From Candidatus Harpocratesius repetitus (GTDB lineage: Archaea > Asgardarchaeota > Lokiarchaeia > Sigyniarchaeales > Promethearchaeaceae), in assembly GCA_021498095.1 (NCBI GenBank), contig JAIZWK010000001.1, forward strand, positions 3,990,001-4,022,000: a stretch of DNA of 32,000 nt, written 5' to 3'. How positions within the stretch are numbered: the first letter of the stretch is position 1; each line of letters starts with the position of its first letter. The notes beneath the pieces are model-generated. The model was not told the origin of the DNA and made no database searches. It worked only from the letters and a program-made list of their open reading frames with translations. This document shows, piece after piece, positions 20,629-25,509 of the stretch. Made by a program: the position numbers and the translations under genes.

Positions 20629-21780
20629 TTGTTAAAATATTTTATTATGGAATCTGTTCAAGTTATAAAGCATCCTATAATTCGGAGATCCTATAGACCT
20701 ATGATTCGATTAGACACACGATTAATTAGCAAACATAAGTTTTCCCAAGTAATTCGTTGCCTTGCAGTGGGAACGGCTAAAGAAATGCCAATAATTGCAG
20801 TAGGATCCCAAGATAAATATTTATATCTACTAAATGAAAATTTGAAAGAACTTCAAAAAATAAAATTTGATAAATGGGTGCGATGCGTTGCTTTAGGAGA
20901 TTTACTTGGAGATGGATGTGATGAATTAGTTGTAGGTGGAGGAGACAAATCTCTCCACATTTACAAATTTTTGGATTCAGATGGGAAATTTCATGAATTA
21001 TATTCTTATGAATTCGATCATTTTGTCAATACATGCGAAATTGCAGATATTACTGGAGATGGAGAATTAGAAATTATTGTGGGTTCATGGGATCAGACAA
21101 TTCATGCATTAAAACTTTTTCCAGAACGTTTATCAATATTATGGGTCAGAAAATTAGAAAAACGAGTAAACATAATTAAAGTAGCAGATATTAATAAAGA
21201 TGGCAAAAATGAAATCTTAGTTTTGTTCAAAGAAGGGAGTTTAGGAGTCTTCTCTTTTGATATATGCAAACCTTTATGGCTCTTTAAGACAAATAAGGAA
21301 TTACTTACAGTTGATGTTGGCCCGCTTGATGAGAAAGGAATAAATTATATTGTTACTGGAGGAAATGGTAAGGTTTTGTATATTATAGATCCTAATGGAA
21401 ATCTAATTCATAAAGAAGAGTTTAAAGACAGGATAACTGCATTAATCCTTGGTGATATTGATGGAGATGAAAATAATGATATGATTTTAGGTGAAGGCGA
21501 TATAGCACTTAAAGCATTTAAGTTTTCGGGAAAATCTCCTGCCTTCTTTGAGATGAAATGGAACTACAGAATCCATCATACATTGAATTGCTTATTATTA
21601 AATGATTTTAACAAAGATCAAAAAAGAGAACTGATTTTTGGAGGATATAATAAAACTATTACCGCAATTCAAGATACTGAATACGGAATGGTCGAACCAA
21701 TATACAAAAAGAATTTTCTTTCAGAAAACGAATCTATAAAAGCGGACGAATCAGAAAATGAGCCAAATCAAATAAAATAG
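20629..21780 (+). CDS. Cytoplasmic FG-GAP/VCBS-repeat beta-propeller protein (likely start ATG 20647)
   Basis: Six D-x-x-x-D-G-x-x-[DE]-type repeats (GDLLGDGCDELVVG, ADITGDGELEIIVG, ADINKDGKNEILVL, GDIDGDENNDMILG, NDFNKDQKRELIFG, plus one degenerate copy). No signal peptide. Confidence 0.85.
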   Translation: MLKYFIMESVQVIKHPIIRRSYRPMIRLDTRLISKHKFSQVIRCLAVGTAKEMPIIAVGSQDKYLYLLNENLKELQKIKFDKWVRCVALGDLLGDGCDELVVGGGDKSLHIYKFLDSDGKFHELYSYEFDHFVNTCEIADITGDGELEIIVGSWDQTIHALKLFPERLSILWVRKLEKRVNIIKVADINKDGKNEILVLFKEGSLGVFSFDICKPLWLFKTNKELLTVDVGPLDEKGINYIVTGGNGKVLYIIDPNGNLIHKEEFKDRITALILGDIDGDENNDMILGEGDIALKAFKFSGKSPAFFEMKWNYRIHHTLNCLLLNDFNKDQKRELIFGGYNKTITAIQDTEYGMVEPIYKKNFLSENESIKADESENEPNQIK

Positions 21781-21843: not shown

Positions 21844-23016
21844 TTACTTTCTTCTTTTCCTTCTAATTATCACAATTAAAGCTAAAAATCCAATTAATAA
21901 GGCGAAAATACCCACACTAACAGAAATAAAGAAATAATCAGGCTCAATTACGCCAAATTCCAAAAGTGCCAAGGGTTTATTTGTTGATATTGATGAAAAA
22001 TATGGATAGGCTTTTGCCATCAAATTTGAAAAAGATTCCCAATGATCAAAGCGATCTAATGCACCATAAATGCTGATTCCAATCCAATCAATGTAATCAT
22101 CTCCAGGATAATACACACTCATGTTTGTACAAGGATCATCAACTTCAAAATAATCATCAACATGAAAGACCCATGTAATATCAGTGGCGTTTTCTTCCCG
22201 AAATAAGTCAATAATATGCCGATAAGCAGCTTTGAAAAGTTCTGGTCCAGTATTGCAGCCACCATTCCATTTAGCATTCCATGCAAACCAGTCTCCATTA
22301 ACTTCAGTGCCAAATTCAATAATTAGTGGATTTTCTATAGATTTTGCATCATTAGCCCAAACTCTCAGATCACTATCATACATTCCATCAACGATTTTCT
22401 GCAAAGAATACACAGGATCAGGAGTTGGACGATCATAAGAACTAATTGGAAACATACGAATAAAGGGGATAATACCTAAATTATGAATAACATCCACTGC
22501 TTCGGCTGGAAACTCAATATGTTCCATCCATGGGTTAGTAAAATATGCCCATACTATTTTTTTTCCTACTAATTCTTGGAAATCAGTGATGGCATTTGCG
22601 GTAATACTATCTTCTGAATCATTGAAATCAGGATATGCGCTATGATAAATCCCTTCAGAATTTGGAATTAGTTTTACTCCGTTTGATGTATTTTCCCACT
22701 TTGCTTCAGTGCCAAATTTTTCATCAGAAATTCCAATTTTATAAGCAGTAGTGGCTTCAATAGATGAATCAAGTCGGACTTTAGATTCCCCAACCAACCC
22801 CCCATTATCCCAATTTTCATGCCAATAACTAATTGCTTTTATCCGATTATAACTTTGATTATTAAGTGTGTTAAATGCATCTTCAATCCAAAGTGCTTTT
22901 TTATTTTTAAAATCTCTATCTTCTTCACTAGAAGCACCAAAATTAAAACTTTGATTTATTACGAATCCTGAAAGAAGAAATATCAGCAATATTTTTGAGA
23001 TTGTTGTTGTTTTCAT
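21844..23016 (-). CDS. Secreted, C-terminally membrane-anchored GH26-like glycoside hydrolase
   Basis: N-terminal signal-like segment. EFGTEVNGDWF is the acid/base region, followed by AYRHII..FR, YYPGDDYIDWIGIS.YG and KPLALLEFG (nucleophile). The C-terminus is a TM helix plus RRKRRK. Confidence 0.88.
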   Translation of the reverse strand: MKTTTISKILLIFLLSGFVINQSFNFGASSEEDRDFKNKKALWIEDAFNTLNNQSYNRIKAISYWHENWDNGGLVGESKVRLDSSIEATTAYKIGISDEKFGTEAKWENTSNGVKLIPNSEGIYHSAYPDFNDSEDSITANAITDFQELVGKKIVWAYFTNPWMEHIEFPAEAVDVIHNLGIIPFIRMFPISSYDRPTPDPVYSLQKIVDGMYDSDLRVWANDAKSIENPLIIEFGTEVNGDWFAWNAKWNGGCNTGPELFKAAYRHIIDLFREENATDITWVFHVDDYFEVDDPCTNMSVYYPGDDYIDWIGISIYGALDRFDHWESFSNLMAKAYPYFSSISTNKPLALLEFGVIEPDYFFISVSVGIFALLIGFLALIVIIRRKRRK

Positions 23017-23226: not shown

Positions 23227-25509
23227 TTAAAGAGAAAATTGGGCTTCGCTGGCTTTGTAATCTTCACCAGTTCCAGTAATTTTATATCGAATTTCTACGG
23301 TATCACCAGCAGCAATTTCTTCAATTACCCAAACCAACATATCTTTCTTTTCTAAACTTTTCACTTCAGCGGGTTCTTCACTATAATCTCCATATTCAAA
23401 ATTATCCGGAACAACATCACGCAATTCGATATTAGTTAAAACATTTTCACCGGTATTAGTTAAGCGTAATACAATTTCGTATTCACCTTCACTGGCCAAA
23501 GCAGAGATACGCTTGCCTTTGCGAATCTTTTTCCGTTCGTGAACTACTGGAATTGTAATAGCTTCAGGAATAATTTCAATTTGAGCTCCTGCAGGATATG
23601 TATTACCTAAATACCTCACATTAGAAACGAATTCGGTATCACGTGGAGGTTTATCAGCGATAATTGTATATTTCGCTTTTATTATCATTCCAGGTAAGAA
23701 CATTCCAAAAGCGCTATCCCGTAATTCGGTTAAGGAGATTTTTACCAAGTGTTCTGAATCAGAAGTTTCTGTAGCAGGTTCTATTTCTATAAAGGATGGA
23801 TCAACAGTGATTTGTTCACCTAAATCTTCCCAATCAATTTCTTCTTCTTCATCTAATCCCTCGTGATTGTAATCTTCAGGAGGTCTAACAATAAAAAGTT
23901 CAATTTCTTCTGGTTTTGGAGGAATATACCCACTTTGGATGCGGTCTTCAATTAATAATTCATTTAAATCGGCACCACCGGTATTCTTTACTTGATGAAG
24001 AACTTCAAATGTATTTTGCTGGAATGACGCAATAGAACTTATCGAATAACTTAATTTTCCATCCATCATTGCAACAGCTAATTCAAGATCATCAATAGTT
24101 ATAGAACCCATGGTAGATATTTTATGATCGCTAACGAGGAAAAATTCAACCGTTTTATAGAACTTTGGTTCTTCTCCATTTTCAGTTTCTGTTTCCCATT
24201 CTACAGATTCCCATCGCGCACCAGAAGCAATTGGAGGAATTTCCCCAGGATCAATATCAAGCACTTTTTCATTATTTGCAACATTTACAATGTCTAAATT
24301 CACTAATTGCATCTGAAAATCAGATTCGTTTTCAAAAATAACTCTACAATCGTATTTATCAGGATTTGAATCTTGTTGAAAAATTTCCATACCAACGAAG
24401 TTATCACTGTATGCATCAAATTTATCAATTTGTATACCAGTTAAGGCTTTTGTGGCAAAATATTCAACAAAGACCTTTCCTGTATTTATTTTTTCTTCAG
24501 CAGAATGAACTTCAATTGACATATTTAATTTCAAACTTACTTCAGAACCAGCTTTAATACTGTCTATTGTCCAAACCACAAAATTATCAATATCTGTTTC
24601 TGCTTGACCATGTGAAGTTTCTACAATGTCAATATTCATATATCCTTCTGGAATCTCTTTTTTAATTTTAATATCGTTTAAATCATAATCAGTAGTATTT
24701 TTAGCCGTTATCTTAAAGAGAATTCTGTTTGCATCACCTGGTGCTAAAGAATAGGTTTCTACAGATTCGTCATTTTGGGTTGAAATAAATTCAGTAATTT
24801 TCAACGCCGGTTCTTCAAATTCTTCGATTTCATATTCAATTTCATATTCTTTTCCTGGTTCCAAACTTTTTATCGAAACAGTTTCATCAATTGAAGCAGA
24901 TTTCTCTTTTTTAAAGGAAACATCAATATCCCAAATCTTATTTATCGAAGACGGATTAATTACTTTGAACAATCCGCTTGTTTTCCGATCTTCTTCAATA
25001 TCTGTTTCACCATTAAATTCAAAATGAGTCTCAACTTTTTCAATGATTTCTAAGGGAACTAACTCTCCTACAGCACCTTTTGGTCCTAAAATAATCTCTC
25101 CTTCTTTATTTCCTGTTGCTTTATCATGAGTATAGATTTTTCCAGTTCCAGAATCTTTTTGATATTCAATTTCTCGTTTTCCGCCTTCAGATTTCATTTT
25201 TTCTGCCTCAGCACGTTCCATTTCTTCACTTGCATCAAAACCCATTCTAGTTCCAGATCCCATTTGTTCAGAACTTGATTGAACTTGCTCAAAGAATTTC
25301 ATTAGCGGATTGTAATCTTTCTTTCCTATTTTTACATCTTTTCCACTTTTCTTAATTGCATCTTCAATCACCTTTTTTGGTAAATTTGAGGATGCAAGAT
25401 TCCCAAACATTGCAAAAAATTGATCTGAAGTAACTGAAAAATCACATTTTAATATTTTTTTATCCAGAACAACTTTTCCTACATTTTTTATATTGTATTT
25501 ATCTGCCAT
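23227..25509 (-). CDS. Large acidic protein with about five tandem Ig-like (DUF11/CARDB-like) domains and no signal peptide
   Basis: Repeated N-T/E-G/S/T-x-x-x-L-x-N/D-x-x-x-x-D/K-x-I/V-P and W-x-I-x-x-I-x-A-G-x-x-V / L-E-P-G motifs. No hydrophobic leader or TM segment. Confidence 0.8.
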   Translation of the reverse strand: MADKYNIKNVGKVVLDKKILKCDFSVTSDQFFAMFGNLASSNLPKKVIEDAIKKSGKDVKIGKKDYNPLMKFFEQVQSSSEQMGSGTRMGFDASEEMERAEAEKMKSEGGKREIEYQKDSGTGKIYTHDKATGNKEGEIILGPKGAVGELVPLEIIEKVETHFEFNGETDIEEDRKTSGLFKVINPSSINKIWDIDVSFKKEKSASIDETVSIKSLEPGKEYEIEYEIEEFEEPALKITEFISTQNDESVETYSLAPGDANRILFKITAKNTTDYDLNDIKIKKEIPEGYMNIDIVETSHGQAETDIDNFVVWTIDSIKAGSEVSLKLNMSIEVHSAEEKINTGKVFVEYFATKALTGIQIDKFDAYSDNFVGMEIFQQDSNPDKYDCRVIFENESDFQMQLVNLDIVNVANNEKVLDIDPGEIPPIASGARWESVEWETETENGEEPKFYKTVEFFLVSDHKISTMGSITIDDLELAVAMMDGKLSYSISSIASFQQNTFEVLHQVKNTGGADLNELLIEDRIQSGYIPPKPEEIELFIVRPPEDYNHEGLDEEEEIDWEDLGEQITVDPSFIEIEPATETSDSEHLVKISLTELRDSAFGMFLPGMIIKAKYTIIADKPPRDTEFVSNVRYLGNTYPAGAQIEIIPEAITIPVVHERKKIRKGKRISALASEGEYEIVLRLTNTGENVLTNIELRDVVPDNFEYGDYSEEPAEVKSLEKKDMLVWVIEEIAAGDTVEIRYKITGTGEDYKASEAQFSL

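Follow-up and report, generated by a model that had tools for sequence, protein, structure and literature searches.

The open reading frame at positions 21844-23016 on the minus strand of the window (the whole 32,000-nucleotide stretch of Candidatus Harpocratesius repetitus DNA that was analysed) encodes a 390-residue GH26 protein, P0001, in which the final unit of the barrel now stands first in the chain, and a natural circular permutation of the (β/α)8 barrel is confirmed. As the overall reading, to which we give a probability of roughly 0.87, P0001 is a functional, secreted, C-terminally membrane-anchored retaining GH26 β-glycanase of clan GH-A, whose circularly permuted barrel most likely came from duplication and truncation and whose gene was probably acquired. 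A circular permutation had been proposed in the first-pass annotation, and it is supported by the sequence, the profile comparison, the predicted structure and the recurrence of the same order in at least 69 species genomes.

The best solved match is CtLic26A, the GH26 β-1,3-1,4-glucanase (lichenase) module of Clostridium thermocellum CelH (PDB 2BV9, 2CIP, 2CIT, 2V3G, and 2VI0), which shares with P0001 the clan GH-A barrel, the catalytic Glu pair, and the motifs of the last unit. CtLic26A is a soluble cellulosomal module with the canonical order β1 to β8, whereas in P0001 α7-β8-α8 comes first and a transmembrane (TM) anchor follows β7. The parts of P0001 are as follows.

21844..23016, minus strand: whole ORF, permuted GH26 protein P0001 (PF02156, 43 bits against a cut-off of 20.2); the stop codon TAA is at 21844-21846
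22933..23016, minus strand: predicted signal peptide, residues 1-28, with a basic n-region, the hydrophobic core ILLIFLLSGFVI, and a polar c-region, as read from the sequence
22705..22911, minus strand: relocated last barrel unit, residues 36-104 (α7 39-51, β8 59-65, α8 86-96), from the CtLic26A alignment, the profile, and the AlphaFold2 (AF2) model (pLDDT 96-98)
22657..22704, minus strand: joint of the old C- and N-termini, residues 105-120, a predicted β-hairpin (106-110, 113-117)
21943..22656, minus strand: barrel units β1-α1 to β7, residues 121-358, from structural and sequence alignment to CtLic26A
Within 21943..22656, minus strand: acid/base E238, codon 22303-22305, motif FGTEVNGDW, aligned with E109 of CtLic26A
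Within 21943..22656, minus strand: nucleophile E353, codon 21958-21960, motif KPLALLEFG, aligned with E222 of CtLic26A
21847..21936, minus strand: C-terminal TM helix and basic tail RRKRRK (predicted cytoplasmic), residues 361-390, from the sequence and a model helix at 368-389

Sequence and predicted structure of P0001

The chain would thus run from the signal peptide through α7-β8-α8, a short hairpin joint, and β1 to β7 to an end five residues past the nucleophile, where the TM anchor would follow. The first-pass annotation had noted that the nucleophile motif KPLALLEFG is followed only by VIEPD and then by the TM segment, and the P0001 sequence bears this out at E353. The placing of residues 40-101, which read KALWIEDAF...YNRIKAISYWHENW, at 22714-22899 also agrees in coordinates and codons. 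The relocated unit holds the family-invariant residues K40, W43, W65, and E67, and these are invariant in 71 permuted sequences together with E238, E353, and E358. In P0081, a canonical relative, the equivalents of the two catalytic Glu residues are E155 and E286, both invariant in 60 canonical sequences. The positions of K40 (codon 22897-22899), where the new N-terminal helix begins, and of E358 (21943-21945), at the new C-terminus, should be noted, as the two residues flank the cut. Lying on either side of it, they might bridge it.

In a phmmer search of PDB sequences, the best match of P0001 was CtLic26A. Residues 140-357 align with 21-226 of the 2bv9_A chain (i-E 3.7e-21) and residues 38-94 with 230-278, so that the order of the segments is reversed while the two are contiguous in the target (226 to 230). 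The top PDB sequence matches, found with phmmer and with the profile, are all GH26 entries. With the profile of 71 permuted homologues, both stretches match CtLic26A significantly and separately (i-E 1.3e-25 and 5e-10), and in the last unit the motifs KA.WI and W.HEN are common to CtLic26A and P0001. Residues 36-104 match, by BLASTP, the N-terminal region of 79 permuted homologues and the C-terminal 60-65 residues of 137 canonical homologues, the closer canonical matches having 40-55% identity and E values of about 1e-12 to 1e-18. On the sequence evidence, these segment matches are far beyond chance. In the comparison of the permuted and canonical profiles, the core is 53% identical, and the alignment ends just past the nucleophile motif. 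P0001 therefore has the two swapped segments of a natural circular permutant, and the assignment of residues 40-101 to the unit that normally follows the GH26 nucleophile stands, being founded on CtLic26A 230-278 and the C-termini of the 137 canonical homologues.

Membership of GH26 is given by these PDB sequence matches and by PF02156, which matches residues 216-334 (E 5e-11) with profile positions 138-246 of 311; an NCBIfam scan of P0001 gave nothing significant. When the two parts were scanned with Pfam separately, residues 30-105 gave no match and residues 102-360 again gave profile positions 138-246 only. PF02156 sees only β4-β6 of the subfamily, in the canonical relatives as in P0001, and because of this shared partial coverage Pfam cannot decide on the permutation. 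Of the separate HMM alignment suggested in the first-pass annotation, the Pfam version is thus uninformative, whereas the reversed order is found against CtLic26A both with phmmer and with the 71-sequence profile. The permutation is invisible to domain annotation, and the annotated domain boundaries are misleading. Since Pfam covers only β4-β6 of the subfamily, the domain boundaries, truncation calls, and construct designs for many entries named "GH26" or "β-mannanase" are likely wrong.

The AF2 model of P0001 (pLDDT 91.5, pTM 0.86) gives the elements in the order α7 (39-51), β8 (59-65), α8 (86-96), hairpin (106-117), and β1 (123-128), with β4 (231-235), β7 (349-355), and the TM helix (368-389) further along the chain. 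The signal-peptide region is a helix (4-19) with low pLDDT. E238 follows the strand 231-235, and E353 lies in the strand 349-355. In the control AF2 model of P0081, the closest canonical relative (pLDDT 95.4), the same elements are found in the usual order. An N-terminal strand (32-35) and a C-terminal strand (366-369) of P0081 correspond to the halves of the P0001 hairpin and are unlinked there.

In the structural alignment with VIA-align, residues 121-360 of the model superimpose on 7-229 of 2cip_A (CtLic26A) with a Z score of 21.7, an rmsd of 2.1 Å, and 30% identity, and residues 38-100 are left over. Foldseek of the model against a GH26 structure gave an E value of 5.9e-14, and other GH-A families (GH39, GH5, and GH1) score lower against the model (Z 12-13). 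The alignments with the GH26 entries 7xjr, 6ueh, and 3zm8 are rotated by one unit and span residues 52-363; this coverage through a one-unit shift indicates that eight barrel units are present. The AF2 order, the confidence values, and the rotated alignments support a closed eight-unit barrel in the predicted structure, which has the clan GH-A (β/α)8 fold. The predicted strand order, α7-β8-α8-hairpin-β1 to β7, is that of the proposed permutation. Residues 102-357 do not form a complete eight-stranded barrel in the model but comprise seven strands and a capping hairpin, the eighth strand being 59-65. The canonical order of eight β/α units is not found in P0001, where α7-β8-α8 precedes β1 to β7. 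As chain order is not a formal CAZy criterion, P0001 is still filed under GH26, as a permuted sub-group.

Distribution and origin of the permuted order

Among the 269 homologues fetched, 79 are permuted, with the segment ahead of the core and an end 5-7 residues past the nucleophile, and 137 are canonical, with the segment behind the core; those assigned to neither class are fragments or too divergent to classify. Identity to the P0001 core is about 45-56% in both classes alike. When the segments are set in the same order, canonical and permuted forms are 50-58% identical over the whole barrel. In a survey of species with one genome each, 69 of the best 80 loci are permuted. They occur in Bacteroidota, WOR-3, Chlorobiota, Campylobacterota, Gammaproteobacteria, Spirochaetota, Phycisphaerae, Bdellovibrionota, and an Asgard Kariarchaeota MAG. 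The 11 canonical loci belong to Bathyarchaeia, Altiarchaeota, Nitrososphaeraceae, Anaerolineae-type Chloroflexota, Paceibacterota, and one unclassified bacterium. A single core is found in 79 of the 80 loci (no second within 3 kb) and a single α7-β8-α8 segment in all 80. The ends of the permuted genes are genuine, with signal peptides or lipoboxes before α7 and stop codons after LEFxxxE. The permuted order is the norm of a large clade in bacteria and Asgard archaea and is not peculiar to P0001. P0001 is thus one member among many, a loss of novelty that the first-pass annotation had foreseen should the order prove to be the norm. Canonical relatives are equally similar to P0001. The database names of the permuted proteins are generic.

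The Asgard identity of the host genome is supported by a TFIIB gene, by eukaryote-like neighbours, and by the closest homologue of P0001, which bears the name Promethearchaeota. The genome consists of one 4.36-Mb contig whose completeness, judged by marker genes, is 93.6%, and P0001 is its only GH26 match. An assembly artefact or a miscalled tandem gene was rejected on this single locus and on the counts of cores and segments in the 80 loci. At E 1e-10, a search of 40 related genomes (2 sharing its genus, 11 its family, and 27 its order) gave no homologue of P0001. The gene is therefore likely to be accessory and acquired, and vertical inheritance within the lineage was rejected on the same result. 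The lack of a match in these relatives also points to a patchy occurrence among Asgard archaea, like that of horizontally transferred genes. As for the neighbourhood, the gene at 20629-21780 on the plus strand encodes a 383-residue FG-GAP/BBS2-BBS7-like β-propeller, and that at 23227-25509 on the minus strand a 760-residue protein with DUF11 repeats and a match to the adaptor-complex medium-subunit (mu-homology) family. Both flanking proteins are eukaryote-signature-like Asgard proteins with no evident link to a glycanase. No conserved neighbourhood was found around the bacterial permuted genes, which lie beside genes for TrkH, a methyltransferase, GT2, a GH3-β-lactamase fusion, and a DNA methylase. 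Gene context gives little functional support.

In the permuted joint, the C-tail of the canonical proteins (AYR.GI...F) leads into their mature N-terminus (KLLPP..GIY), and the joint reads as a head-to-tail fusion of two canonical copies. The old termini are joined there, and the new termini are true gene ends, as seen in the export signals and, in the bacterial forms, in the stops 5-7 residues past the nucleophile. A tandem GH26-GH26 protein is found in Caldilinea sp. (P0194, MFN3331863.1, 681 residues, 18 cluster members), in which a core (66-288), an α7-β8-α8 segment (294-354), a second core (367-611), and a second segment (615-676) follow one another. The middle part of P0194 (285-611) is collinear with residues 28-360 of P0001, and the architecture is that expected of a duplication intermediate. 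Unlike in P0001, both barrels in P0194 are complete, and since the identity is only 26-30%, P0194 illustrates the route and is not the ancestor. Among 33 long homologues, no close tandem intermediates were found. The joint and the Caldilinea tandem point to duplication followed by truncation as the most likely route. A canonical gene would have been duplicated in tandem and fused in frame, and β1-β7 of the first copy and α7-β8-α8 of the second would then have been lost.

Trees were built on order-normalised sequences with 27 permuted forms sampled. A single clade of all 27 is rejected by the AU test (p 0.003), and with it a single origin of all permuted forms. For the main clade of Asgard and bacterial forms without P0245, P0131, and P0209, a subset picked post hoc with the tree already seen, a single origin is not rejected, and the likelihood of the constrained tree is higher (p 0.66). 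P0245 (L086:3001-4077), which lies among housekeeping genes on an 87-kb contig, shares 55% identity with P0219 and P0202, both canonical, and no more than 43% with the other permuted forms. Because it is nearer to these canonical proteins than to the permuted ones, P0245 is, by its sequence affinities, a second, independent permutation at the same loop. The separate placement of P0131 is probably noise, since its best matches are permuted, and the placement of P0209 is ambiguous. The canonical P0166, on a single 2-kb contig, is placed among the permuted forms and may be a reversion to the canonical order.

Membrane anchoring and the position of the cut

Most of the permuted members are bacterial lipoproteins. 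A lipobox-like Cys is found in 63 of the 79 permuted forms, at a median of 11 residues ahead of α7, and in 28 of the 137 canonical forms, at a median of 21.5 residues ahead of β1. The permuted Asgard members, P0001-P0003 (Promethearchaeota), P0004 (Heimdallarchaeaceae), P0014 (Thorarchaeota), and P0024, have a Sec-type signal and end in a TM helix followed by a basic tail, a tail type absent from the bacterial members. In P0001, the hydrophobic stretch covers residues 361-384 and is followed by RRKRRK, the TM segment beginning 8 residues past the nucleophile E353. The earlier proposal that the C-terminus after β7 is tethered directly to the membrane holds for the Asgard members but not for the bacterial ones, which are attached through an N-terminal lipoprotein cysteine.

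In a TIM barrel, the C-termini of the strands and the N-termini of the helices lie on the catalytic face. From this geometry, both new termini of the permuted forms would be on the catalytic face, and the 8-residue TM spacer in P0001 or the lipid tether of about 11 residues in bacteria should hold the active-site face near the membrane, in agreement with what the first-pass annotation had proposed. The anchor, a C-terminal TM helix here and an N-terminal lipid in bacteria, would thus keep the active-site face beside the cell surface. The canonical members of the subfamily (for example P0081, P0005, and P0008, uncharacterised metagenomic or MAG proteins) have the same motifs, and many of them are secreted or anchored. 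They differ from P0001 in their normal chain order and in the anchor, which, where present, would be on the opposite face. In canonical TM-anchored forms such as P0008, the TM helix comes after α8, and by barrel geometry these forms would be tethered from the face opposite the active site. In P0014, a 40-residue Ser/Thr linker precedes the TM helix; the tight tether is therefore not universal, and such a linker would relax the constraint on orientation.

The permutation may be real and yet selectively neutral, a by-product of duplication and truncation at a permissive β7-α7 loop, with the position of the anchor having no functional effect, and we consider this account quite possible, if at somewhat less than even odds. 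TIM barrels tolerate engineered permutation at many loops, conservation of the core, at about 50% identity, is the same in canonical and permuted proteins, TM-anchored forms such as P0008 exist among the canonical proteins too, and P0014 has its long flexible linker before the TM helix. On the other hand, P0245 came independently to the same cut site, the AU test speaks against one clade of all permuted forms (p 0.003), and the short-tether lipobox-like Cys is concentrated in the permuted class (63/79 against 28/137), though this correlation of permutation with anchoring is confounded by shared ancestry. A more specific account, which we think rather unlikely, is that selection has favoured the cut after the nucleophile more than once (at least two independent origins), since it shifts both termini from the stability face to the catalytic face and, with a short lipid or TM tether, aims the active site at the cell's own surface, where the subfamily would trim or remodel a cell-associated microbial exopolysaccharide rather than digest plant mannan. 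Should this orientation prove right, permutation would be a means of turning an anchored enzyme toward the membrane.

It is improbable that the C-terminal helix and basic tail are a cleaved archaeosortase-like sorting signal with lipid attachment instead of a permanent anchor. The C-terminus resembles such signals in its layout (short motif, TM helix, basic tail), and NCBIfam gave a weak, non-significant match to GG_III-CTERM (E 2.6). However, no PF09721 exosortase/archaeosortase was found in the 4.36-Mb genome, although it was detected in the control, M. jannaschii, and no conserved tripeptide motif was found before the helix across the Asgard homologues. The sorting-signal interpretation was rejected as unsupported, and because no member of the archaeosortase family was found in the genome, the helix is most simply a permanent anchor. 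Least probable by far is the view that there is no permutation, with residues 36-104 an unrelated N-terminal module and the protein an assembly artefact, a tandem duplicate in decay, or what is left of a GH26 enzyme that is truncated or has only seven strands: PF02156 does match residues 216-334 only and nothing in 30-105, but it is equally blind to the segment in the canonical relatives, residues 36-104 match the last unit of CtLic26A and of 137 canonical homologues, the 4.36-Mb contig has one GH26 locus, at least 69 species genomes share the order, with a second core within 3 kb at one locus only, and the catalytic and β8 residues are invariant.

Catalysis, substrate and comparison with known systems

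As a permuted and anchored GH26 protein, P0001 is presumably an active retaining β-glycanase, since both catalytic Glu residues and the invariant β8 residues are present. The usual double displacement would be expected, with E238 at the end of β4 as the acid/base and E353 at the end of β7 as the nucleophile. The relocated segment would still supply the invariant W65 and E67 at the C-terminal, catalytic-face end of β8.

The substrate cannot be transferred from CtLic26A, because this closest characterised enzyme is only about 30% identical. Fusions are frequent among the long homologues (P0292-P0307, P0132, P0315, and P0316): 17 of 33 have a GH114 domain (PF03537), and in others the partner is a polysaccharide lyase (PF14099) or a spherulin-4-like module. 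A GH114 gene (L003:1396-2454, minus strand) adjoins that of P0081, and the host genome has one GH114 gene of its own, 226 kb away, encoding an N-terminal membrane anchor (G000:C1:4238591-4239334; L088:1282-2268). These domain fusions, the GH114 neighbour of P0081, and the GH114 gene of the genome itself hint that a microbial exopolysaccharide is a better guess for the substrate than plant mannan. For this uncharacterised GH26 clade, which is found in sediment bacteria and Asgard archaea, the GH114 link gives a lead to the substrate that can be tested.

To our knowledge, few circular permutations of catalytic TIM barrels occur in nature. The textbook case of a naturally permuted glycosidase (β/α)8 barrel is that of the GH70 glucansucrases and GtfB-type enzymes with respect to GH13 (clan GH-H). 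In this pair, as in the permuted GH26 proteins, a catalytic TIM barrel has been permuted naturally with its machinery retained. GH70 and GH13 differ from the present case in the clan, the α-glucan chemistry, the cut site, and the separate family assigned to the permuted form. Their permutation is ancient and divergent, whereas GH26 has a subfamily in which proteins of either order are about 50% identical. GH70 has therefore already shown that glycosidase barrels can be permuted naturally, but in the literature searched (openly accessible full text in PMC and bioRxiv) nothing was found on a permuted GH26 protein, a permuted mannanase, or a permuted barrel of clan GH-A. The coexisting orders at about 50% identity, the surviving tandem architecture, and the further independent cut make up an unusually clean natural system, suited to studying the re-threading of a (β/α)8 barrel and the basis of its tolerance of a cut immediately past the nucleophile.

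The permuted module is also found within larger proteins. In P0295 (1003 residues), it lies at the extreme C-terminus of a protein that also has GH114 and DUF4214 domains according to precomputed Pfam matches. In P0139 (801 residues), it is N-terminal, ahead of CBM4_9 domains and a T9SS sorting tail.
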